Made by a program: the position numbers and the translations under genes. From assembly GCF_003019035.1 (NCBI RefSeq), contig NZ_CP027447.1: DNA of 64,000 nucleotides; one strand, 5' to 3'. The notes under the pieces were generated by a model. The model saw only the letters and a program-made list of their open reading frames with translations, was not told the DNA's origin and ran no database searches. Numbering within the stretch: the first letter of the stretch is position 1; each line of letters opens with the position of its first letter. The stretch is from Escherichia coli. Lineage in GTDB: Bacteria > Pseudomonadota > Gammaproteobacteria > Enterobacterales > Enterobacteriaceae. Of this stretch, positions 5,978 to 63,238 are shown one piece after another.

Positions 5978-6979
5978 TCAGAGTTTAGCGAATTTTTCGA
6001 GGGTGCGAATGAGCTGTGTGACGAAGCCATATTCGTTATCGTACCAGGCGACCGTTTTCACCAGTTGTAAATCGCCCACGGCGGTAATTTCCGTTTGCGT
6101 GGCATCAAACACCGAACCGAAATGGCTGCCAATGATATCGGAAGAGACTATTTCTTCATCGGTATAACCAAATGACTCGTTATTGGTGGTTGCTTGTTTA
6201 AGTGCGTTATTCACCTCTTCGGCAGTCACTTTTTTTCCGAGAATGGACACCAGCTCAGTGACCGAACCTGTTTTCACCGGCACGCGTTGCGCATGACCTT
6301 TCAGTTTGCCGCTCAGTTCCGGGATCACCAGACCAATGGCTTTTGCCGCACCTGTAGTGTGGGGAATGATATTTTCTGCCGCTGCACGTGAAGCGCGTAG
6401 ATCTTTACCTCGCGGACCATCCACCAGTGACTGAGTGCCGGTATAGGCATGAATGGTCGTCATCGTGCCGACTTCTATTCCGAAACTGTCGTGCAAGGCT
6501 TTGGCCATCGGTGCAAGACAGTTAGTGGTGCATGACGCCACGGAAACAATGGTGTCGTTGCCATCCAGTGTGTCGTCATTGACGTTATAAACGATGGTTT
6601 TCATTTCACCGGCAGGGGCGGAAATCAACACCTTCTTCGCACCAGCATCAAGGTGCGCCTGCGATTTCTCGGCGGAGGTATAAAAGCCAGTACATTCGAC
6701 AATGATTTCTGCGCCTTTCGCTTTCCATGGAATATTTTTAGCCTCTTTTTCGGCGTAAACCGCGATACTTTTTCCATCAACGATAAGTGAATCTTCCGTA
6801 AAATCAACGCTCCAGGGGAACGGTCCGTAGTTTGAATCATGTTTCAACAGGTAGGCGAGAATTTTTGGGGAAGTGAGATCATTAATAGCAACAATGTCTA
6901 TGTTGCTTTTGACTTCAAGTAATCGACGCAACACCAGTCGACCGATACGACCAAAACCGTTAATACCAACTTTACTCAT
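5978..6979 (-). CDS. gapC: Glyceraldehyde-3-phosphate dehydrogenase C, intact 333-aa frame
   Basis: Uninterrupted 333-aa ORF with GAPDH motifs (NGFGRIGR N-terminus, SCTTNCLAP active-site Cys region). Confidence 0.9.
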
Positions 6980-7167
6980 GGTCTTCTCCTGTCAGGAACG
7001 TTCGGATGAAAATTGATCCTTTCCAGGCTTAGACCAGGATGGCGGGATGGGCAATCTACATTCTTGCCGTGAAACGTAACGTACTGAAAACGGGTGAACA
7101 ATATTTAATGAAATTTTAAGAAAAGCTCGTTATGTTAACGGAAAATTATGTTAAAGCAGGAAATGTT

Positions 7168-7698
7168 ATGGAAAGTAAATATTCAAGGTTACAAATCGGC
7201 ATTCACTGGCTGGTCTTTTTGCTGGTTATCGCAGCGTATTGCGCAATGGAGTTTCGTGGTTTTTTCCCACGTGGCGATAGGCCGCTTATCAACATGATTC
7301 ATGTTTCCTGTGGCATCTCAATTCTCGTGCTGATGGTTGTTCGTCTTTTGTTAAGGCTTAAATACCCAACTCCGCCGATTGTACCTAAACCAAAACCGAT
7401 GATGACGGGACTGGCGCATTTGGGACATTTGGTGATCTATCTCCTGTTTATTGCGCTGCCAGTGATTGGTTTGGTGATGATGTATAACCGGGGCAACCCG
7501 TGGTCTGCGTTTGGTATGACAATGCCTTATGCAGCAGAGGCCAATTTCGAACGGGTTGATAGCTTAAAGTGGTGGCATGAGACGCTGGCGAATCTGGGAT
7601 ATTTTGTCATCGGGTTGCACGCTGCGGCTGCACTGGCACACCACTATTTCTGGAAGGACAACACACTTCTACGCATGATGCCGCGTAAACGTTCCTGA
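7168..7698 (+). CDS. cybB: Cytochrome b561
   Basis: ORF 7132-7698; internal Met at 7168 gives the 176-aa protein beginning MESKYSRLQ; multiple TM helices. Confidence 0.85.
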   Translation: MESKYSRLQIGIHWLVFLLVIAAYCAMEFRGFFPRGDRPLINMIHVSCGISILVLMVVRLLLRLKYPTPPIVPKPKPMMTGLAHLGHLVIYLLFIALPVIGLVMMYNRGNPWSAFGMTMPYAAEANFERVDSLKWWHETLANLGYFVIGLHAAAALAHHYFWKDNTLLRMMPRKRS

Positions 7699-45815: not shown

Positions 45816-47106
45816 CAGGGAAAGATCATCAGAAGTACACTTTTTGTACTAAACAATTCGCATTTTATGTTTAAAAATTGAGATATTCCTCATTACCTGA
45901 AGCTGTTTTTTATTGCTTATACATGATCAAATACTCCTTACATAATTAAGGAGAACAAAATGGAACTTAAAAAATTGATGGAGCATATTTCTATTATCCC
46001 CGATTACAGACAAGCCTGGAAAGTGGAACATAAATTATCGGACATTCTACTGTTGACTATTTGTGCCGTTATTTCTGGTGCAGAAGGCTGGGAAGATATA
46101 GAGGATTTTGGGGAAACACATCTCGATTTTTTGAAGCAATATGGTGATTTTGAAAATGGTATTCCTGTTCACGATACCATTGCCAGAGTTGTATCCTGTA
46201 TCAGTCCTGCAAAATTTCACGAGTGCTTTATTAACTGGATGCGTGACTGCCATTCTTCAGATGATAAAGGCGTCATTGCAATTGATGGAAAAACGCTCCG
46301 GCACTCTTATGACAAGAGTCGCCGCAGGGGAGCGATTCATGTCATTAGTGCGTTCTCAACAATGCACAGTCTGGTCATCGGACAGATCAAGACGGATGAG
46401 AAATCCAATGAGATTACAGCTATCCCAGAACTTCTTAACATGCTGGATATTAAAGGAAAAATCATCACAACTGATGCGATGGGTTGCCAGAAAGATATTG
46501 CAGAGAAGATACAAAAACAGGGAGGTGATTATTTATTCGCTGTAAAAGGAAATCAGGGGCGGCTTAATAAAGCCTTTGAGGAAAAATTTCCACTGAAAGA
46601 ATTAAATAATCCAGAGCATGACAGTTACGCAATGAGTGAAAAGAGTCACGGCAGAGAAGAAATCCGTCTTCACATTGTTTGCGATGTCCCTGATGAACTT
46701 ATTGATTTCACGTTTGAATGGAAAGGTCTGAAGAAATTATGCGTGGCAGTCTCCTTTCGGTCAATAATAGCAGAACAAAAGAAAGAGCCAGAAATGACGG
46801 TCAGATATTATATCAGTTCTGCTGATTTAACCGCAGAGAAGTTCGCCACAGCAATCCGAAACCACTGGCACGTGGAGAATAAGCTGCACTGGCGTCTGGA
46901 CGTGGTAATGAATGAAGACGACTGCAAAATAAGAAGAGGAAACGCCGCAGAATTATTTTCAGGGATACGGCACATCGCTATTAATATTTTAACGAATGAT
47001 AAGGTATTCAAGGCAGGGTTAAGACGTAAGATGCGAAAAGCTGCCATGGACAGAAACTATCTCGCGTCAGTCCTTGCGGGGAGCGGGCTTTCGTAATCTT
47101 TCCCTG
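45816..47106 (+). mobile_element. H-repeat (ISAs1-family) element, copy A, 1291 bp
   Basis: Terminal inverted repeats cagggaaaga (left) and tctttccctg (right); encodes a 378-aa transposase; nearly identical to copies at 50594-51884 and 58348-59638. Confidence 0.85.
45960..47096 (+). CDS. ISAs1-family transposase (H repeat-associated protein, YdcC/YhhI-like)
   Basis: 378-aa ORF with SD aaggag; three near-identical copies in the window. Confidence 0.88.
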
Positions 47107-48889
47107 GCTGCTGGAGTTCACGCGCGACCGCCTGCACCGGGAGACGGTGCGCAGCTTCGGCAGCATGGCAGGCAGTAATGCCGCATACGAACTGACCAGC
47201 ACATACACCCCCGCAGGCCAGTTACAGAGCCAGCACCTGAACAGCCTGGTATATGACCGTGACTACGGGTGGAGTGACAACGGCGACCTGGTGCGCATCA
47301 GCGGCCCGCGACAGACGCGGGAATACGGCTACAGCGCCACGGGCAGGCTGGAGAGTGTGCGCACCCTCGCACCGGACCTGGACATCCGCATCCCGTATGC
47401 CACGGACCCGGCGGGCAACCGGCTGCCGGACCCGGAGCTGCACCCGGACAGTACACTCACAGTGTGGCCGGATAACCGAATCACCGAAGACGCGCACTAC
47501 CTGTACCGTTACGATGAATACGGCAGGCTGACGGAGAAGACGGACCGCATCCCGGCGGGTGTGATACGGACGGACGACGAGCGGACCCACCACTACCGCT
47601 ACGACAGCCAGCACCGCCTGGTGTTCCACACGCGGATACAGCATGGCGAGCCACTGGTCGAGAGCCGCTACCTCTACGACCCGCTGGGACGGCGAATGGC
47701 AAAACGGGTCTGGCGGCGGGAGCGTGACCTGACGGGGTGGATGTCGCTGTCGCGTAAACCGGAGGAGACATGGTACGGGTGGGACGGCGACAGGCTGACG
47801 ACGGTGCAGACTGACACCACACGTATCCAGACGGTCTACCAGCCGGGGAGCTTCACGCCGCTCATCCGTATCGAGACAGAGAACGGCGAACGGGAGAAAA
47901 TGCAACGCCGCAGCCTGGCGGAGAAGTTACAGTCGGAAGGGAGTGAGGACGGTCACGGTGTGGTGTTCCCGGCTGAGCTGGTGAGGATGCTGGACAGGCT
48001 GGAGGAAGAAATCCGGGCAGACCGCGTGAGCAGTGAAAGCCGGGCGTGGCTTGCGCAGTGCGGGCTGACGGTGGAGCAACTGGCCAGACAGGTGGAGCCG
48101 GAATACACACCGGCGCGAAAAGTTCATTTTTACCACTGCGACCACCGGGGCCTGCCGCTGGCGCTCATCAGCGAAGACGGCAATACGGTGTGGAGCGGGG
48201 AGTATGATGAATGGGGCAACCAGCTTAATGAGGAGAACCCGCATCATGTGTATCAGCCATACCGCCTGCCGGGGCAGCAGTATGATGAGGAGTCGGGGCT
48301 GTACTATAACCGCAACCGGTACTATGATCCGTTGCAGGGGAGGTATATTACCCAGGATCCGATTGGGCCGGTGGGGGGGTGGAATCCCTATAGTTATGTG
48401 CTTATTAATCCAGCCCAGTTTATTGACCCAACAGGTTTAACTCAAGAGGACAATTGGACCTATGGTGAGGTAGGTAATAGCTGTGTTACGAGTCAACGCG
48501 ATTTTACTCCCCCGCCCGGACTTGCGGATATGAAAGCCAGCATTGGCGCTGCCTGCTCAAGAAACAATGCTTCCAGAAACTGCCACCCCGTAGATGGTAG
48601 TAATGCTTCTGCACCATCGGATAAAGCCGCATGGGAAAATATTCAAAATGCGACAAATGGTAAAGATTTATCTGGTGGTGGAAATATGTTTTGTGTAGGA
48701 AATGAGGACTGTGCGGTTGTTCATAGCTGTCGTGAAATAGTTAATGCTCGACACCCGGCAGGACGAGTGCGTGAACGTGTAACTCCGTTAACAACGTCAG
48801 GAACAGCAACGCTCAATGGAACAACAGTTTACTTTTATAATGATCCCCGGAATGGCAATTGTCCTGCTCACGAATATATTCCTCAATAA
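47107..48889 (+). pseudogene. rhsE: Orphan Rhs 3' fragment (rhsE-like): distal core repeats plus a divergent C-terminal toxin tip; no native start codon
   Basis: Begins abruptly at the right end of H-repeat copy A; 47107-48355 is collinear, without indels, with 55994-57242 of the intact rhs (about 93% amino-acid identity); DPIGP motif at 48356-48370; unique C-terminal about 173 codons. Confidence 0.8.
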
Positions 48890-50593: not shown

Positions 50594-51884
50594 CAGGGAA
50601 AGATCATCAGAAGTACACTTTTTGTACTAAACAATTCGCATTTTATGTTTAAAAATTGAGATATTCCTCATTACCTGAAGCTGTTTTTTATTGCTTATAC
50701 ATGATCAAATACTCCTTACATAATTAAGGAGAACAAAATGGAACTTAAAAAATTGATGGAACATATTTCTATTATCCCCGATTACAGACAAGCCTGGAAA
50801 GTGGAACATAAATTATCGGATATTCTACTGTTGACTATTTGTGCCGTTATTTCGGGTGCAGAAGGCTGGGAAGATATAGAGGATTTTGGGGAAACACATC
50901 TCGATTTTTTGAAGCAATATGGTGATTTTGATAATGGTATTCCTGTTCACGATACCATTGCCAGAGTTGTATCCTGTATCAGTCCTGCAAAATTTCACGA
51001 GTGCTTTATTAACTGGATGCGTGACTGCCATTCTTCAGATGATAAAGACGTCATCGCAATTGATGGAAAAACACTCCGGCATTCTTATGACAAGAGTCGC
51101 CGCAGGGGAGCGATTCATGTCATTAGTGCGTTCTCAACAATGCACAGTCTGGTCATCGGACAGATCAGGACGGATGAGAAATCCAATGAGATCACAGCTA
51201 TCCCTGAACTTCTTAACATGCTGGATATTAAAGGAAAAATTATCACAACTGATGCAATGGGTTGCCAGAAAGATATTGCAGAGAAGATACAAAAACAGGG
51301 CGGTGATTATTTATTCGCTGTAAAAGGAAATCAGGGTCGGCTAAATAAAGCCTTTGAGGAAAAATTCCCACTGAAAGAATTAAATAATCCAGAACATGAC
51401 AGTTACGCAATGAGTGAAAAGAGTCACGGCAGAGAAGAAATCCGTCTTCACATTGTTTGCGATGTCCCTGATGAACTTATTGATTTCACGTTTGAATGGA
51501 AAGGTCTGAAGAAATTATGCGTGGCAGTCTCCTTTCGGTCAATAATAGCAGAACAAAAGAAAGAGCCAGAAATGACGGTCAGATATTATATCAGTTCTGC
51601 TGATTTAACCGCAGAGAAGTTCGCCACAGCAATCCGAAACCACTGGCACGTGGAGAATAAGCTGCACTGGCGTCTGGACGTGGTAATGAATGAAGACGAC
51701 TGCAAAATAAGAAGAGGAAACGCCGCAGAATTATTTTCAGGGATACGGCACATCGCTATTAATATTTTGACGAATGATAAGGTATTCAAGGCAGGGTTAA
51801 GACGTAAGATGCGAAAAGCTGCCATGGACAGAAACTATCTCGCGTCAGTCCTTGCGGGGAGCGGGCTTTCGTAATCTTGCCCTG
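50594..51884 (+). mobile_element. H-repeat (ISAs1-family) element, copy B, 1291 bp
   Basis: Same IRs and length as copy A. Confidence 0.85.
50738..51874 (+). CDS. ISAs1-family transposase (H repeat-associated protein)
   Basis: 378-aa ORF, a few substitutions relative to copy A. Confidence 0.88.
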
Positions 51885-53549: not shown

Positions 53550-56500
53550 ATGAGCGGAAAACCCGCGGCACGCCAGGGTGATGCCACGCTGAAAGGCGGT
53601 CCGATAGTCCAGGGGTCAGCGGGGGTGCTGATAGGCGCGCCCACCGGCGTGGCGTGCTCGGTGTGTCCGGGCGGGATGACTTCGGGCAACCCGGTAAATC
53701 CGCTGCTGGGGGCGAAGGTGCTGCCCGGCGAGACGGACCTTGCCCTGCCCGGCCCGCTGCCGTTCATTCTCTCCCGCACCTACAGCAGCTACCGGACGAG
53801 GACGCCTGCCCCGGTGGGCGTTTTCGGCCCCGGCTGGAAAGCGCCTTCGGATATCCGCTTACAGCTACGTGATGACGCACTGATACTCAACGACAACGGC
53901 GGGCGGAGCATTCACTTTGAGCCGCTGCTGCCGGGGGAGGCGGTGTACAGCCGCAGCGAGTCAATGTGGCTGGTGCGCGGTGGTAAGGCAGCGCAGCCGG
54001 ACGGCCACACGCTGGCGCGACTGTGGGGGGCGCTGCCGCCGGATATCCGGTTAAGCCCGCATCTTTACCTGGCGACCAACAGCGCACAGGGGCCGTGGTG
54101 GATACTCGGCTGGTCAGAGCGGGTGCCGGGTACTGAGGACGTACTGCCAGCGCCGCTGCCGCCGTACCGGGTGCTTACCGGGCTGGCGGACCGCTTCGGG
54201 CAGACGCTGACGTACCGGCGTGAGGCCGCCGGTGACCTGGCCGGGGAAATCACCGGCGTGACGGACGGTGCCGGGCGGAAGTTCCGTCTGGTGCTGACCA
54301 CGCAGGCGCAGCGTGCGGAAGAGGCCCGCACCTCTTCGCTATCTTCTTCTGACCGTTCCCGCCCTCTCTCAGCCTCAGCGTTCCCCGACACACTGCCCGG
54401 TACGGAATACGGCCCCGACAGGGGCATCCGTCTTTCGGCGGTGTGGCTGATGCACGACCCGGCATACCCGGAAAGCCTGCCCGGTGCGCCACTGGCGCGG
54501 TACACGTATACGGAAGCCGGTGAACTGCTGGCGGTATATGACCGCAGCAATACGCAGGTGCGCGCTTTCACGTATGACGCGCAGCACCCGGGCCGGATGG
54601 TGGCGCACCGTTACGCGGGAAGGCCGGAGATGCGCTACCGCTACGACGATACGGGGCGGGTGGTGGAGCAACTGAACCCGGCAGGGTTAAGCTACCGCTA
54701 TCTTTATGAGCAGGACCGCATCACCATCACGGACAGCCTGAACCGGCGAGAGGTGCTGCATACAGAAGGCGGGGCCGGGCTGAAGCGGGTGGTGAAAAAA
54801 GAACTGGCGGACGGCAGCGTCACGCACAGCGGGTATGACGCGGCAGGAAGGCTCACGGCACAGACGGACGCGGCGGGACGGCAGACAGAGTACGGTCTGA
54901 ATGTGGTGTCAGGCGATATCACGGACATCACCACGCCGGACGGGCGGGAGACGAAATTTTACTATAACGACGGGAACCAGGTGACGGCAGTGGTGTCCCC
55001 GGACGGGCTGGAGAGCCGCCGGGCGTATGATGAGCGGGACAGGCTGGTAACGGAGACATCGCGCAGTGGGGACGTCATCCGGTATGCTTATGATAATCCG
55101 CACAGTGAATTACCGGCCACGACAACAGATGCGACGGGCAGCACCCGGCAGATGACCTGGAGCCGCTACGGGCAGTTGCTGGCGTTCACCGACTGCTCGG
55201 GCTACCAGACCCGCTATGAATACGACCGCTTCGGCCAGATGACGGCGGTCCACCGCGAGGAAGGCATCAGCCTTTACCGCCGCTATGACAACCGTGGCCG
55301 GTTAACCTCGGTGAAAGACGCACAGGCCCGTGAAACGCAGTATGAGTACAACGCCGCAGGCGACCTGACTGCCGTTATCACCCCGGATGGCAACCGGAGT
55401 GAGACACAGTACGATGGGTGGGGAAAGGCCATCAGCACCACGCAGGGCGGGCTGACGCGCAGTATGGAGTACGATGCTGCCGGACGTATCACCACGCTGA
55501 CTAACGAGAACGGCAGCCACAGCGACTTTAGTTACGATGCGCTGGACCGCCTGATACAGCAGGGCGGCTTTGACGGGCGGACGCAACGTTATCATTATGA
55601 CCTGACCGGAAAACTCACGCAGAGTGAAGATGAGGGGCTTGTCATCCTCTGGTACTACGATGAATCGGACCGTATTACTCACCGCACGGTAAACGGTGAA
55701 CCGGCAGAACAGTGGCGGTATGACGGCCACGGCTGGCTGAGAGAAATCAGCCACCTGAGCGAAGGCCACCGTGTTGCCGTCCACTATGGCTATGATAATA
55801 AAGGCCGCCTGACCAGTGAGCGCCAGACGGTGCATCACCCGGAGACGGGAGAGCTGCTCTGGCAGCATGAGACCGGACATGCGTACAACGAACAGGGGCT
55901 GGCAAACCGCGTCACGCCGGACAGTCTGCCGCCGGTGGAGTGGCTGACCTATGGTAGCGGTTATCTGGCAGGCATGAAGCTGGGCGGGACGCCGCTGCTG
56001 GAGTTCACGCGCGACCGCCTGCACCGTGAGACGGTGCGCAGCTTCGGCAGCATGGCAGGCAGTAATGCCGCATACGAACTGACCAGCACATACACCCCTG
56101 CAGGCCAGTTACAGAGTCAGCACCTGAACAGCCTGGTGTATGACCGTGACTACGGGTGGAATGACAACGGAGACCTGGTGCGCATCAGCGGCCCGCGACA
56201 GACGCGGGAATACGGCTACAGCGCCACGGGCAGGCTGGAGAGTGTGCGCACCCTCGCACCGGACCTGGACATCCGCATCCCGTATGCCACGGACCCGGCG
56301 GGCAACCGGCTGCCGGACCCGGAGCTGCACCCGGACAGTACACTCACAGTGTGGCCGGATAACCGCATCGCGGAGGATGCGCACTATGTCTACCGCCACG
56401 ATGAATACGGCAGGCTGACGGAGAAGACGGACCGCATCCCGGCGGGTGTGATACGGACGGACGACGAGCGGACCCACCACTACCACTACGACAGCCAGCA

Positions 56501-57803
56501 CCGCCTGGTGTTCTACACGCGGATACAGCATGGCGAGCCACTGGTCGAGAGCCGCTACGTCTACGACCCGCAGGGACGGCGAATGGCGAAACGGGTATGG
56601 CGGCGGGAGCGTGACCTGACGGGGTGGATGTCGCTGTCGCGTAAACCGGAGGTGACGTGGTACGGCTGGGACGGCGACCACCTGACGACGGTGCAGACCG
56701 ACAGCACACGTATCCAGACGGTATACGAGCCGGGAAGCTTCACACCGCTCATCCGCATCGAAACAGACAACGGCGAGCGGGAGAAAACGCAGCGGCGGAG
56801 CCTGGCGGAGAAGCTCCAGCAGGAAGGGAGCGAGGACGGACACGGTGTGGTGTTCCCGGCTGAACTGGTGAGGATGCTGGACAGGCTGGAGGAAGAAATC
56901 CGGGCAGACCGCGTGAGCGGTGAAAGCCGGACGTGGCTTGCACAGTGCGGGCTGGCGGTGGAGCAACTGGAAAAACAGGTGGAGCCGGAATACACGCCGG
57001 AACGCACACTGCATCTTTACCACTGCGACCACCGGGGACTGCCGCTGGCGCTTATCAGCGAAGACGGCAATACGGTGTGGAGCGCGGAGTATGATGAATG
57101 GGGAAACCTGCTTAATGAGGAGAACCCGCATCATGTGTATCAGTCATACCGTCTGCCGGGGCAGCAGCATGATGAGGAGTCGGGGCTGTATTATAACCGG
57201 AACCGGTACTATGACCCGCTACAGGGGAGGTATATCACCCAGGATCCAATCGGGCTAAGAGGTGAATGGAATCTGTATAAATATCCATTAAACCCTGTTC
57301 GGTTTATAGATTCTTTGGGTTTAAAATTCCATGTTAACGGTGATCCAAGTGATTTTAATCAGGCTGTTGAGTATTTAAAACAAGATTCACGAATGAAAGA
57401 AGCTATAGATTTTTTATCAAGCTCTGAAGAAACCATAAAGATAGAGTATATTGATGAAACCGACGTTAGATTTGACCCGGATAAAATGACTATATATTGG
57501 AATGGTAAGGCGGCTTTATTTTGTTCAACTGATTTAAAATCGAAATCACAATCACCTGCATTAGGTTTGGGGCATGAGTTTGCTCATGCGCACTTATATC
57601 TTATTGATAAGGATGGTTATATGGGGCTTGTGAGACGTGCGGATGAACAATATAAAAATAAAGAAGAGGCGAGAGTTATCACTTTAATTGAACAGCATGC
57701 GGCGAAAACTTTAGGTGAGTGTACCAGAACAGCATATAATGGAGTGTATTATCGTGTGAATACACCAACGCAGACGGCAACAATAAATGGCACGCCAGAA
57801 TAG
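53550..57803 (+). CDS. rhs: Full-length Rhs polymorphic toxin: PAAR-like N-terminus, YD-repeat shell, DPxGL autoproteolysis motif, C-terminal HExxH-containing toxin tip
   Basis: 1417-aa ORF with SD aaggag; N-terminal [11 protein letters not shown]...CSVCPGG; RHS/YD repeats; PxxxxDPIGL at 57243-57257; C-terminal about 180 aa contain [11 protein letters not shown]. Confidence 0.92.
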
Positions 57804-57815
57804 TGAGATTTTTTT

Positions 57816-58265
57816 ATGATGAAATATTTGATGGTTTTATTGTCTCTATTTTCTGCTTCGGTATTGGGGATGGGGCGAGTGAATGAATTGTGTGGAATAG
57901 ATAGTGTGAAAACGATAGAAATAATTAATCTTCCAGCATATGTTACCACCTTAACCCCGCTTAGCAAGGAAGGTCTCAAGAGAATATACAAACATAAAGT
58001 GGTGGTGAATGGAGTTAGCGATTTTTATGCTGGTGAGATAATTGATTTATTGCAAATGAAGTATTTCAGGAAGGAGGAGAATAACGATATAAGATGGGGG
58101 GTTGACATTGTTTCGAATAAAAATAATAAATGTGAAATTTATTTTGATGGTTTTGGTGAATGTGGAAGTGTGAATGGCATTAACGTATGTTTTGAAAAAA
58201 ATGAAATGATAGATTGGATTAAAAAAGAAATCCCTTTTCTGTCGCAAGAAATAGGTGGTCTTTAA
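57816..58265 (+). CDS. Putative cognate immunity protein with N-terminal signal peptide
   Basis: 149-aa ORF 12 nt downstream of the rhs stop; hydrophobic N-terminus MMKYLMVLLSLFSASVLG; AT-rich. Confidence 0.7.
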   Translation: MMKYLMVLLSLFSASVLGMGRVNELCGIDSVKTIEIINLPAYVTTLTPLSKEGLKRIYKHKVVVNGVSDFYAGEIIDLLQMKYFRKEENNDIRWGVDIVSNKNNKCEIYFDGFGECGSVNGINVCFEKNEMIDWIKKEIPFLSQEIGGL

Positions 58266-58322: not shown

Positions 58323-58372
58323 CAGGGAAAGATCACGTAACGCTGCTCAGGGAAAGATCACGTAACGCTGCT
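58323..58372 (+). repeat. Perfect 25-bp tandem duplication of the H-repeat left terminus
   Basis: cagggaaagatcacgtaacgctgct occurs twice in direct tandem (58323-58347 and 58348-58372); measured from the second unit the element is 1291 bp, the same as copies A and B. Confidence 0.85.
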
Positions 58373-59638
58373 TTTTTGTACTAAACAATCCGCATTTTAT
58401 GTTTAAAAATTGAGATATTCCTCATTACCTAAAGCTGTTTTTTATTGCTTATACATGATCAAATACTCCTTACATAATTAAGGAGAACAAAATGGAACTT
58501 AAAAAATTGATGGAACATATTTCTATTATCCCCGATTACAGACAAGCCTGGAAAGTGGAACATAAATTATCGGATATTCTACTGTTGACTATTTGTGCCG
58601 TTATTTCGGGTGCAGAAGGCTGGGAAGATATAGAGGATTTTGGGGAAACACATCTCGATTTTTTGAAGCAATATGGTGATTTTGATAATGGTATTCCTGT
58701 TCACGATACCATTGCCAGAGTTGTATCCTGTATCAGTCCTGCAAAATTTCACGAGTGCTTTATTAACTGGATGCGTGACTGCCATTCTTCAGATGATAAA
58801 GACGTCATCGCAATTGATGGAAAAACACTCCGGCATTCTTATGACAAGAGTCGCCGCAGGGGAGCGATTCATGTCATTAGTGCGTTCTCAACAATGCACA
58901 GTCTGGTCATCGGACAGATCAGGACGGATGAGAAATCCAATGAGATCACAGCTATCCCTGAACTTCTTAACATGCTGGATATTAAAGGAAAAATTATCAC
59001 AACTGATGCAATGGGTTGCCAGAAAGATATTGCAGAGAAGATACAAAAACAGGGCGGTGATTATTTATTCGCTGTAAAAGGAAACCAGGGGCGGCTAAAT
59101 AAAGCCTTCGAGGAAAAATTTCCGCTGAAAGAATTAAATAATCCAGAGCATGACAGTTACGCAATGAGTGAAAAGAGTCACGGCAGAGAAGAAATCCGTC
59201 TTCACATTTTTTGCGATGTCCCTGATGAACTTATTGATTTCACGTTTGAATGGAAAGGTCTGAAGAAATTATGCGTGGCAGTCTCCTTTCGGTCAATAAT
59301 AGCAGAACAAAAGAAAGAGCCAGAAATGACGGTCAGATATTATATCAGTTCTGCTGATTTAACCGCAGAGAAGTTCGCCACAGCAATCCGAAACCACTGG
59401 CACGTGGAGAATAAGCTGCACTGGCGTCTGGACGTGGTAATGAATGAAGACGACTGCAAAATAAGAAGAGGAAATGCAGCAGAATTATTTTCAGGGATAC
59501 GGCACATCGCTATTAATATTTTGACGAATGATAAGGTATTCAAGGCAGGGTTAAGACGTAAGATGCGAAAAGCAGCCATGGACAGAAACTATCTGGCGTC
59601 AGTCCTTGCGGGGAGCGGGCTTTCGTAATCTTTCCCTG
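58348..59638 (+). mobile_element. H-repeat (ISAs1-family) element, copy C, 1291 bp
   Basis: Same terminal IRs; internal bases 14-25 differ from copies A and B (cgtaacgctgct versus tcagaagtacac). Confidence 0.85.
58492..59628 (+). CDS. ydcC: ISAs1-family transposase (H repeat-associated protein, ydcC-equivalent position)
   Basis: 378-aa ORF; position before yddH corresponds to ydcC of reference strains. Confidence 0.8.
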
Positions 59639-59744
59639 TTTGTTTATATAAATGCCAAGATATTCTTTCTCAAAATATTGACTTCAGATTAACCGTGTTC
59701 CACGCAAACAATTTTCAAACATTCATCAATAGATAAGGAATTCC

Positions 59745-60212
59745 ATGTTTATACGACCAGTCAAACCTTCAGATGTTGAACCATTACTGGATATGCTGCT
59801 TGCCAGTGGACAATTTGATCAAGATGGCCTTCATCATGTACAAAAAACACTAACACATTATTTCTCAGGTCAATCTGCCGATTTATGGTTTAGTGCAGAA
59901 CACTTAGGACTGGCAGGGATTGCCTATTGCGCTCCTGAAGTGATGACAAATGATGTCTGGAATTTATTAATGCTCTGGATCAGTCCTTCCCATCAGCGCC
60001 AGGGAGTGGGACATCTGCTGATTAACGAAATAGAAAAAGAGCTCACAATTAAACAGGCAAGACTACTTTTAGTAGAGACCTCCAGCCATATCGATTTTAG
60101 TGCCGCCCGCGCATTTTATACAAAACAGGGCTTTATCAATGAAGCTATAATACGCAATTACTATGATGTTGGTGAGGATAAATTAATCTTCACTAAGAAT
60201 ATACAATCGTGA
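59745..60212 (+). CDS. GNAT-family N-acetyltransferase
   Basis: 155-aa ORF; acetyl-CoA binding motif QRQGVGHLL; sits where a 77-aa tautomerase gene (pptA) is expected from recalled reference gene order. Confidence 0.7.
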   Translation: MFIRPVKPSDVEPLLDMLLASGQFDQDGLHHVQKTLTHYFSGQSADLWFSAEHLGLAGIAYCAPEVMTNDVWNLLMLWISPSHQRQGVGHLLINEIEKELTIKQARLLLVETSSHIDFSAARAFYTKQGFINEAIIRNYYDVGEDKLIFTKNIQS

Positions 60213-60277
60213 AATAAAATGTGCTTTTAACTCATATGGAAACATTGCTTAAAAAACCGGTCGCTGCATATGATTCT

Positions 60278-60847
60278 TTAGCCCGCGGTGACTCGCTTCC
60301 CGCTGGTAACAAACGTGCCAGCGCCTAAATGATGCAACGTATTGAGCTTATCATCATCAAACTGCCAGCGGCCTTCGACAAATACCCGTGCGTCTGCCGC
60401 TGCTGATACCACTTCGCCAAACAGCGTGTCGTATTTCTCTTGCGCGGAAGTCGCTGGTAGCAATCGGCACTCCATCCACGCCAGACATTTCTCTTCAACA
60501 AGTGGCAAACCAAGCACCGGACCTTCCACCACCGGAATGCCATAGCAATTAAATTTATCCTCTTCACGCCCAGATACACTTCCCACTGCCCACGTCCAGT
60601 TAGTCGCTGCAACGCCTGGGATAACGATGCCAAATTTACCGTTACGCTCAATCAACTCCCTGGTCCATGTCGACTTATCTACCACAATCGCCACGCGTGG
60701 CGGTTCAAACTCTACGGGCATAGACCAGGCTGCTGCCATCACATTACGTCGCTGTGATTTTTCATCAAAAGTTGTTATCAAAACTGTGGGGCCGTGGTTT
60801 AACAGACGGCTGGCATGGTGTAATTCGACGGGAATGAATTGGCTCAC
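60278..60847 (-). CDS. yddH: Flavin reductase-like protein
   Basis: 189-aa ORF; flavin reductase-like fold; synteny next to nhoA. Confidence 0.85.
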   Translation of the reverse strand: MSQFIPVELHHASRLLNHGPTVLITTFDEKSQRRNVMAAAWSMPVEFEPPRVAIVVDKSTWTRELIERNGKFGIVIPGVAATNWTWAVGSVSGREEDKFNCYGIPVVEGPVLGLPLVEEKCLAWMECRLLPATSAQEKYDTLFGEVVSAAADARVFVEGRWQFDDDKLNTLHHLGAGTFVTSGKRVTAG

Positions 60848-61021
60848 GATATCGCCTCGCTATGAAGGGTGTTTTAAAAGCGTAGCTCGTAACGCAATAA
60901 GTAACGAAATTAACGGGATTGGCGATTTGCGAACGTGATGCATGTCCGCGATCGCACAAAATAGCCGGTGCGGCGTCTATTCCAGGTTATAAGTTGAGAA
61001 AACCACTAAGGGAAACGCCTG

Positions 61022-61867
61022 ATGACGCCCATTCTGAATCATTATTTTGCCCGTATTAACTGGTCGGGAGCTGCTGCGGTCAATATTGATACGCTGCGTG
61101 CATTGCACCTGAAACACAATTGCACTATTCCGTTTGAAAACCTCGACGTTTTGCTGCCGAGGGAAATACAGCTTGATGATCAATCGCTGGAAGAGAAACT
61201 GGTGATAGCCCGTCGTGGCGGTTACTGTTTTGAGCAGAATGGCGTGTTTGAGCGGGTGTTATGCGAGCTGGGGTTTAACGTTCGCAGCTTGTTAGGGCGC
61301 GTAGTGTTATCAAATCCGCCAGCATTACCGCCGCGCACCCATCGTTTGCTGTTGGTGGAACTGGAAGGGGAAAAATGGATTGCTGATGTCGGCTTCGGTG
61401 GGCAGACGCTAACCGCGCCGATTCGTTTAGTTCCCGATCTCGTGCAGTTCACGCCACACGGAGAGTATCGGTTGTTACAGGAGGGTGATGATTGGGTGTT
61501 GCAGTTTAATCATCATCAGCACTGGCAGTCGATGTACCGTTTTGATCTCTGCGAGCAGCAACAAAGCGATTATGTGATGGGCAATTTCTGGTCGGCGCAC
61601 TGGCCGCAGTCGCATTTTCGCCATCATTTGCTGATGTGTCGCCATTTGCCGGACGGTGGCAAGCTAACGCTGACCAATTTTCATTTTACCCATTATGAAA
61701 ATGGGCACGCAGTTGAGCAGCGAAATCTACCAGATGTGGCGTCGTTATATGCCGTGATGCAGGAACAGTTTGGTCTGGGCATGGATGATGTGAAACATGG
61801 CTTTACTGTGGATGAGTTAGCGCTGGTGATGGCGGCGTTTGATACGCACCCGGAGGCGGGAAAATAA
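61022..61867 (+). CDS. nhoA: Arylamine N-acetyltransferase (N-hydroxyarylamine O-acetyltransferase)
   Basis: 281-aa ORF; catalytic Cys in RRGGYCFEQN. Confidence 0.92.
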   Translation: MTPILNHYFARINWSGAAAVNIDTLRALHLKHNCTIPFENLDVLLPREIQLDDQSLEEKLVIARRGGYCFEQNGVFERVLCELGFNVRSLLGRVVLSNPPALPPRTHRLLLVELEGEKWIADVGFGGQTLTAPIRLVPDLVQFTPHGEYRLLQEGDDWVLQFNHHQHWQSMYRFDLCEQQQSDYVMGNFWSAHWPQSHFRHHLLMCRHLPDGGKLTLTNFHFTHYENGHAVEQRNLPDVASLYAVMQEQFGLGMDDVKHGFTVDELALVMAAFDTHPEAGK

Positions 61868-61880
61868 TTTATGTCAGGTT

Positions 61881-61985
<105 letters not shown>

Positions 61986-62014
61986 GCCAGACACAGCGCC
62001 GTCAGGCGCTGTTG

Positions 62015-63238
<1,224 letters not shown>

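Follow-up and report, generated by a model that had tools for sequence, protein, structure and literature searches.

Organization of the locus and comparison with K-12

Which gene occupies the place to the left of yddH in Escherichia coli, and does it owe that place to the rearrangements of the neighboring Rhs island? The question is raised by the 3′ end of a stretch of 64,000 nucleotides of E. coli DNA (the window, taken at its full length). A sequence-only reading of this stretch had noticed a 155-aa GNAT ORF in a slot where, from the reference gene order, a 77-aa tautomerase gene (pptA) was expected, and had proposed a gene replacement at the island edge, possibly with the acetyltransferase as cargo.

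According to the ORF table, Pfam, the RefSeq annotation of the near-identical SCU-301 and a blastn synteny map, the 3′ end of the window represents the rhsE region, i.e. Rhs locus 6 (yncG to pptA) of Jackson et al. (2009, BMC Genomics 10:584; PMC2935791). Between yncG/yncH and yddH it holds Rhs, immunity-like ORFs and three copies of ISAs1 (H-repeat), all in direct orientation. A gene for an Rhs protein of 1417 aa (53550–57803, plus strand; ORF table and Pfam) is followed by an immunity-like ORF of 149 aa (57816–58265) and by the third and last ISAs1-family element of the island (58348–59638, plus strand), which was recognized by Pfam and by its homology to ydcC of K-12 (96.7% identity over 1292 bp in blastn). 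The transposase ORF of this element (58492–59628, plus strand) matches DDE_Tnp_1_assoc (PF13808, 9e-34) and DDE_Tnp_1 (PF01609, 6e-31). The right end of the element, ...TAATCTTTCCCTG, passes without a gap into the DNA upstream of the GNAT gene, and the ISAs1 homology with K-12 and WP4 stops at 59638.

The following 106 bp (59639–59744, plus strand; 31% GC) are the part kept from a longer intergenic region that is present in MB53, since homology to MB53-type genomes begins exactly at 59639. They include a Shine-Dalgarno sequence, AAGGA, at 59735–59739, 5 nt 5′ of the ATG. The GNAT N-acetyltransferase gene itself (59745–60212, plus strand; 155 aa) is intact, is identified by Pfam, homologs and a fold model, and represents the sole ORF of at least 40 aa between the stop of the ISAs1 transposase (59628) and the stop of yddH (60278). 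A spacer of 65 bp lies between the stops of the GNAT gene and yddH; inside it, an alignment anchored at the yddH stop places a candidate non-coding vestige of the pptA 3′ end (60233–60277, plus strand). The conserved right-hand anchor of the locus is yddH (60278–60847, minus strand), a flavin reductase-like gene (Pfam Flavin_Reduct, 2.5e-22; SCU-301 RefSeq annotation) that is convergent with the GNAT gene. It is followed by the arylamine N-acetyltransferase gene nhoA (61022–61867, plus strand; Pfam Acetyltransf_2, 1.4e-87, and K-12 synteny), an IS621 insertion downstream of nhoA (61932–63207), and yddE downstream of IS621. The GC content of the GNAT gene is 40% versus 51–52% for yddH and nhoA. 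A promoter and terminator scan of 59500–60400 returned neither a consensus sigma-70 promoter nor a terminator.

In K-12 MG1655, the order is ydcC (H-repeat), pptA (234 bp), yddH, so the expected gene order was correct. The stops of pptA and yddH overlap by 4 bp in K-12, and the pair figures in a list of convergent overlapping gene/transcription pairs of this strain (PMC12288877); in the window, the convergent pair GNAT/yddH is 65 bp apart, with no terminator predicted. The window is collinear with K-12 up to 59638, unrelated to it from 59639 to 60232, weakly similar from 60233 to 60277, and collinear again from the yddH stop onwards; the segment singled out beforehand, 59640–60280, thus coincides with the non-homologous one. 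The yddH gene of the window is a mosaic relative to K-12, with identities of 72–98% across 50-nt bins. The slot holds the GNAT gene and no tautomerase gene, as had been claimed: the ORF table shows no tautomerase ORF in the window, the best tblastn match of PptA to the whole window has an E-value of 1.4, and at 59640–60280 there is no ORF of 60–80 aa that starts with Met-Pro and has homology to tautomerases. K-12 PptA (YdcE), a 77-aa member of the 4-oxalocrotonate tautomerase family, shares with the GNAT protein only the slot and the convergent orientation towards yddH; in protein family and fold the two are unrelated.

Alternative states to the left of yddH

The junction was compared across 5,426 complete E. 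coli genomes, which revealed several alternative states. A pptA gene with at least 80% coverage is present in 4,084 of them. In about 569 genomes, pptA is reduced to its last 63 bp; in the example of truncated pptA that was inspected, WP4-W18-ESBL-08 (locus L007), an ISAs1 end abuts this 63-bp remnant. DNA of the GNAT gene, of any extent, occurs in 660 genomes, at least 80% of the gene in 432, and the whole 652-bp segment in 431, but an annotated intact GNAT gene accompanies the whole segment in just 16 of the 5,426. In about 415 genomes, the homology sets in at the equivalent of window position 59683 and the annotation is that of a 71-aa hypothetical protein, i.e. the gene is a pseudogene; this group includes 536, LF82, NRG 857C, Nissle 1917 and the type strain ATCC 11775, whose sequenced allele carries W72* and a frameshift caused by a 1-bp deletion. 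A further 229 or so retain solely the last 156–162 bp, the 3′ third of the gene, which in Ecol_316 and N3 is joined to sequence resembling the MB53 DNA upstream of GNAT. Altogether, about 98% of the E. coli genomes with any GNAT DNA have the gene in a decayed or largely deleted form.

The exact ISAs1-GNAT junction of the window recurs in one complete genome, SCU-301, which also has the IS621 insertion: its GNAT gene is 100% identical in DNA to that of the window, and the context is likewise ISAs1-GNAT-yddH-nhoA-IS621-yddE. The protein search found the identical protein in RefSeq (WP_123000022.1, from SCU-301) and UniRef (A0A4C9CCU5_ECOLX), without a single amino acid difference, as well as homologs down to E 3e-83; the exact protein is already public under the name 'GNAT family N-acetyltransferase [Escherichia coli]' and occurs on 603 contigs. 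Gene and placement are thus both found, with annotation, in public genomes.

GNAT in the pptA slot is a common polymorphism and one of at least four alternative states to the left of yddH. The proposed replacement at the island edge holds relative to K-12, at the right edge of the yncG-yddH interval, but it is not a private event of the strain; it is ordinary accessory-genome variation at a known hotspot. Reference genomes that carry the GNAT gene at this position had been named beforehand as the observation that would speak against the expected order, and here the references are divided: K-12 has pptA, while ATCC 11775, 536, LF82 and Nissle 1917 have the GNAT gene in the form of a pseudogene. 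A literature search found no paper on the pptA/GNAT polymorphism, just the K-12 pair list and the Rhs locus table cited above (PMC12288877, PMC2935791). In the latter, pptA is taken as the fixed downstream flank of Rhs locus 6; in the window and in about a quarter of the complete genomes, in contrast, pptA is replaced or truncated, so that the stable flank is yddH.

PLSDB also contains E. coli records (34 kb, 386 kb and 4.9 Mb) with GNAT DNA. They were not taken as a sign that plasmids carry the gene in E. coli: the records are non-mobilizable, bear the pseudogene allele or the 3′ remnant, and most likely are chromosomal pieces.

Junctions with ISAs1 and Rhs

Did the GNAT gene reach the island edge through the Rhs and H-repeat (ISAs1) rearrangements, as the cargo that it had been suspected to be? 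The arrangement in the window invites this interpretation, because an ISAs1 end immediately precedes the gene and an Rhs toxin/immunity pair lies upstream; in the 2012C-4502 group and in ATCC 11775, too, ISAs1 sequence is next to the gene, and the GC content of the gene is low compared to that of yddH and nhoA. The interpretation is contradicted by MB53-type genomes. Between yncG and yddH, MB53 possesses neither Rhs nor ISAs1, and its GNAT gene is the last gene of a 3.3-kb islet of 30% GC with five unannotated ORFs, which extends from the yncG stop to yddH. A left-hand homology that starts at 59639, and not inside ISAs1, is found in 11 of the 16 genomes with an intact GNAT gene, i.e. in MB53, the one that was inspected, and in ten more.

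Furthermore, the GNAT-proximal DNA (59639–60277) does not change from one context to another, but the ISAs1 junction does, falling on three points. In the window and in SCU-301, the full ISAs1 end lies at 59638/59639. In the 2012C-4502 group, whose GNAT gene carries K127*, the full ISAs1 end is located 462 bp further left, inside the last ORF of the islet. In ATCC 11775, where the GNAT gene lies downstream of a PAAR/VgrG/M35 cluster, an internal ISAs1 fragment is fused at 59683, and the same boundary is seen in the approximately 415 genomes with the pseudogene. Moreover, islands of the K-12 type, with both ISAs1 and Rhs, bear pptA and not GNAT, and ISAs1 is unlinked to the GNAT homologs of other genera. 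The cargo proposal did not survive this comparison, and we regard it as very unlikely. Because ISAs1 abuts the GNAT region at three positions in different lineages, it was the H-repeat that encroached on a resident GNAT gene; the simplest reading is that the gene was already beside yddH and lost DNA on its left side to the ISAs1/Rhs island.

The older occupant of the slot

The order of occupation was approached through the DNA adjoining yddH and through the gene order of outgroups. In all five GNAT haplotypes that were examined, about 45 nt to the left of the yddH stop align to nt 186–232 of K-12 pptA. In the window, the segment 60233–60277 has about 70% identity to the pptA 3′ end (codons ~62–77), and its reading METLLKKP compares to MEALIKKP in K-12; aligned to pptA of Citrobacter farmeri, the similarity starts again at nt 186. 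This vestige is short, and its significance depends on the anchoring at the yddH stop: anchored there, the alignments reach z-scores of 3.7–4.8, with 0–4 of 5000 shuffles attaining the score, while without the anchor a local alignment fails to reach significance (269 of 2000 shuffles). As evidence for an older pptA the vestige is thus supportive, not decisive. A pptA 5′ remnant, which would help to tell insertion from replacement, was searched for in the loci of the GNAT haplotype and not found, so the event appears to have removed about three quarters of pptA instead of splitting it. The divergence of the vestige, about 30%, together with the mosaic yddH, points to old, recombining haplotypes at this place.

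The outgroups add a second line of evidence. The yddH gene is conserved across Enterobacteriaceae. In Enterobacter ludwigii, the order is GST (yncG-like), a 76-aa tautomerase, HTH, EF-G-like, yddH, nhoA, narVWYZ, and in C. farmeri, a pptA-like tautomerase of 75 aa is situated 1.4 kb from yddH; neither has a GNAT gene at this place. As the tautomerase gene of these outgroups lies close to yddH without adjoining it, their gene order supports an old pptA in the neighborhood, not the exact junction. Based on this gene order and on the candidate vestige in the examined GNAT haplotypes, pptA was probably the older occupant, with GNAT as the later one.

The converse model, in which E. coli started out with GNAT next to yddH and most lineages later exchanged GNAT for an incoming pptA, appeals to the decayed haplotype in hundreds of genomes, with the B2 strains 536, LF82 and Nissle 1917 among them, and to the age of the alleles (dS 0.085 between the window and MB53). 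It conflicts with the pptA-like tautomerase and the absence of GNAT in the yncG/yddH neighborhood of Enterobacter and Citrobacter, as well as with the candidate pptA vestige at the yddH stop of GNAT haplotypes. The gene is also AT-rich and sporadic across genera, where it resides on islands and plasmids, and a peptide-pattern scan of 100,044 species returned just one other named species, Phytobacter ursingii. We hold an ancestral GNAT to be highly improbable.

We therefore return to the model with pptA as the earlier gene, and we are fairly confident of the following history, in which the GNAT gene would mark one alternative state to the left of yddH and whose direction and order of events we infer. 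Originally, pptA would have been next to yddH, in a K-12-like arrangement. AT-rich foreign DNA with GNAT as its last gene would then have replaced the promoter and the first ~185 bp of pptA, leaving about 45 nt of its 3′ end as a decaying vestige. Thereafter, the GNAT haplotype would have stayed intact in a few lineages, become a pseudogene in approximately 415 genomes, known B2 strains among them, or been mostly deleted. In the lineage of the window and SCU-301, finally, an ISAs1 copy of the Rhs island would have arrived 106 bp 5′ of the GNAT start, either through transposition or because a deletion of about 462 bp next to the IS altered an arrangement like that of 2012C-4502, and the remainder of the AT-rich islet would have been removed.

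The GNAT gene, its relatives and its possible role

The protein passes the Pfam gathering cut-offs of four GNAT families, i.e. Acetyltransf_7 (PF13508, 1e-10, 42.3 bits versus a cut-off of 27), Acetyltransf_1 (PF00583, 35.6 versus 20.7), Acetyltransf_10 (PF13673, 29.5 versus 23.6) and FR47 (PF08445, 25.3 versus 22.1). Motif A, which binds the pyrophosphate of acetyl-CoA (Q/R-x-x-G-x-G/A, after strand β4), is present as Q84-R-Q-G87-V-G89; over 66 homologs, G89 is invariant and G87 is conserved in at least 90%, and 20 alignment columns are invariant in total. Full-length homologs reach down to E 3e-83. Compared with the MB53 allele the dN/dS ratio is 0.10, and compared with a Salmonella homolog 0.05, values that indicate purifying selection on the gene of the window. 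An AF2 model with the mixed α/β GNAT fold was obtained with pLDDT 95.8 and pTM 0.90, and every top match of a Foldseek search against the PDB is a GNAT (TM 0.69–0.89), with 2r7h as the nearest solved structure, followed by AAC(6′)-Ii, RimI, Ard1 and PaiA.

The structure 2r7h (Dde_3044 from Desulfovibrio; a structural-genomics entry annotated as putative GNAT) ranks first in sequence (E 9e-15 over the full length) as well as in fold (TM 0.89, rmsd 1.8 Å), and both proteins are compact single domains of about 155 residues. The two share just 25% identity, and since 2r7h is functionally uncharacterised, a substrate is not transferable from it. By profile, the nearest characterised family is RimI, the alanine N-acetyltransferase of bS18 (TIGR01575, 1.6e-10), and the RimI structures 5isv and 2cnm are close fold neighbors; yet the GNAT gene, unlike the conserved rimI, is accessory and sporadic. 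Among NCBIfam models, the protein stays below the RimI equivalog cut-offs (TIGR01575, 41.3 bits versus 86.4; NF007025, 28.7 versus 173) and below that for AAC(6′) (NF033078, 21 bits versus 265). A specific NCBIfam subfamily was therefore dropped, the matches to RimI, AAC and PAT all being sub-threshold; the fold likeness to AAC(6′) structures 1b87 and 1n71 is generic, with identities of 16–18%.

From family and fold, the protein is most likely a functional-looking, single-domain, acetyl-CoA-dependent N-acetyltransferase, whose predicted mechanism would be the acetylation of an amine on a small molecule or a protein N-terminus. The enzyme is presumably expressed and active. As the promoter scan of its 106 bp of native upstream DNA was negative, expression in the present context may rely on transcription that runs on from the ISAs1 transposase gene.

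Homologs with 62–77% identity are scattered in Enterobacterales, with further cases in an Aeromonas and a betaproteobacterium. The exact-peptide-pattern scan with one genome per species yielded, apart from P. ursingii, one contaminated MAG contig and one distant match. Nucleotide homology to the E. coli gene ends within about 13 bp of the gene ends, and neither blastp of the upstream small ORFs nor blastn of the flanks detected conserved neighbors or shared flanking DNA across genera; nine small ORFs upstream of GNAT homologs had no Pfam matches. The sites are diverse: the Salmonella homolog is found on a P4-like integrase island, that of Enterobacter bugandensis beside a resolvase on a 39-kb contig (the protein is labelled plasmid-borne by NCBI), those of Phytobacter and Citrobacter between a CdiA-CT (PT-VENN) orphan array and marR-MFS, and there are further sites in Serratia, Enterobacillus and Yokenella. 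The gene behaves as a singleton accessory gene without a conserved partner, such a partner not having been found in the other genera. A toxin of a TacT/AtaT/KacT-like toxin-antitoxin pair was likewise rejected as a candidate function: the homologs are singletons, and an adjacent ORF of antitoxin size is missing, with no ORF of at least 40 aa from the ISAs1 stop (59628) to the GNAT start or from the GNAT stop to yddH.

Could the gene be an immunity-like part of polymorphic-toxin islands? In such a model, a detoxifying acetyltransferase, analogous in principle to MccE/RimL, the tabtoxin-resistance protein and the phosphinothricin acetyltransferases, would neutralize a toxin or a small-molecule antibiotic and travel as a self-contained single-gene module with Rhs/VgrG or CdiA-CT orphan arrays, at their distal end. 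The exchange of pptA for GNAT would then amount to a metabolic gene traded for a defence gene. Consistent with the model, the E. coli gene comes after clusters of Rhs or PAAR/VgrG, the homologs in P. ursingii and Citrobacter sp. come after a CdiA-CT (PT-VENN) orphan array, and the fold neighbors include AAC(6′), the tabtoxin-resistance protein TTR and the phosphinothricin (bialaphos) acetyltransferases BAR/PAT. That fold resemblance to resistance enzymes is, however, generic to GNATs, and toxin arrays are general insertion hotspots, so that the adjacency may be incidental. Conserved neighbors and shared flanking DNA are both absent across genera; other homologs sit by a plasmid resolvase, in the P4-like integrase island or between housekeeping genes; and of the E. 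coli genomes with the gene, about 98% have lost it to pseudogenization or deletion. We give very little credence to an immunity-like role; most simply, the closeness to polymorphic-toxin arrays reflects that those arrays are insertion hotspots. The last alternative, a chance open frame in AT-rich junk, which the lack of a consensus promoter and a terminator nearby might suggest, is refuted by the Pfam matches (1e-10), the homologs (E 3e-83), the 20 invariant columns over 66 homologs, the dN/dS of 0.05–0.10 and the confident GNAT model, and carries next to no probability. The 155-aa ORF is a real gene, as Pfam, homologs, purifying selection and the GNAT fold concur.

Implications for the locus

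That the GNAT gene is decayed or mostly deleted in nearly all of its carriers argues against an important conserved role. The overall significance of the finding is small, since it describes an ordinary variant of a variable chromosomal spot. What it changes is the description of that spot: pptA, intact in just about three quarters of the complete E. coli genomes, does not form a fixed flank of the rhsE/Rhs locus 6 hotspot, whose stable right-hand anchor is yddH. In addition, the locus provides a small worked example of ISAs1/H-repeat copies eroding adjacent DNA at several independent junctions.

Rhs island and IS elements

The Rhs island contains three copies of the ISAs1/H-repeat element (the IS family of K-12 ydcC) as direct repeats, at window positions 45816-47107, 50594-51884 and 58348-59638, and each is about 97% identical to K-12 ydcC. 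Such repeated copies offer an obvious target for homologous recombination and for adjacent deletions. Another state of the pptA-yddH junction has the look of an IS-mediated adjacent deletion: in about 569 of 5,426 complete E. coli genomes only the last 63 bp of pptA are left. In the one example of this state that we inspected, strain WP4-W18-ESBL-08 (NZ_AP022064.1; remnant at 5990-6064 of its locus), the right end of ISAs1 directly adjoins what is left of pptA, and the locus lacks yncG.

In the region 57300-58265, the Rhs protein ends in a stretch of ~165 aa that has no Pfam match but includes an HExxH-like motif, HEFAH. The Rhs gene is followed by a 149-aa ORF (57816-58265) with a hydrophobic, signal-peptide-like N-terminus, for which neither Pfam nor NCBIfam yields a match. 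Probably, the Rhs C-terminus and this ORF represent an uncharacterised pair of toxin tip and immunity protein.

On the other side of the junction, an IS621 element of the IS110 family (61932-63207) separates nhoA from yddE; the transposase that it encodes (62035-63015, minus strand) matches the Pfam families DEDD_Tnp_IS110 and Transposase_20. According to the locus comparison, SCU-301 carries the insertion at the identical site, and K-12 and MB53 lack it between these two genes.

Divergence and decay of yddH and the GNAT gene

Compared with K-12, yddH and the yddH-nhoA intergenic region (60278-60912) form a mosaic: identity is 72% at the 3' end and 78-86% across 60713-60912; nhoA, in contrast, is 90-100% identical. 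This pattern suggests that the yddH alleles are old and recombining.

The acetyltransferase (GNAT) gene has decayed independently. In ATCC 11775 (7001-7467 of its locus) it bears W72* and a 1-bp deletion, an allele type common to about 415 complete genomes; in 2012C-4502 (6811-7191), K127* leaves a 126-aa product. A 3' remnant of the E. coli GNAT gene and yddH are also encoded on a 2459-bp contig of a 'Collinsella sp.' MAG (JAIJJM010000490.1), whose gene layout is that of Ecol_316; this contig is almost certainly mis-binned E. coli DNA.

Orthologs with 73% identity occur in Phytobacter ursingii (locus L008, 3178-6468) and Citrobacter sp. MNAZ 1397 (locus L024, 1-7468), where a CdiA-CT (PT-VENN) orphan toxin/immunity array has the gene at its end, immediately ahead of a marR-MFS pair. 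This placement after a toxin array resembles that of the E. coli gene after Rhs or VgrG clusters.
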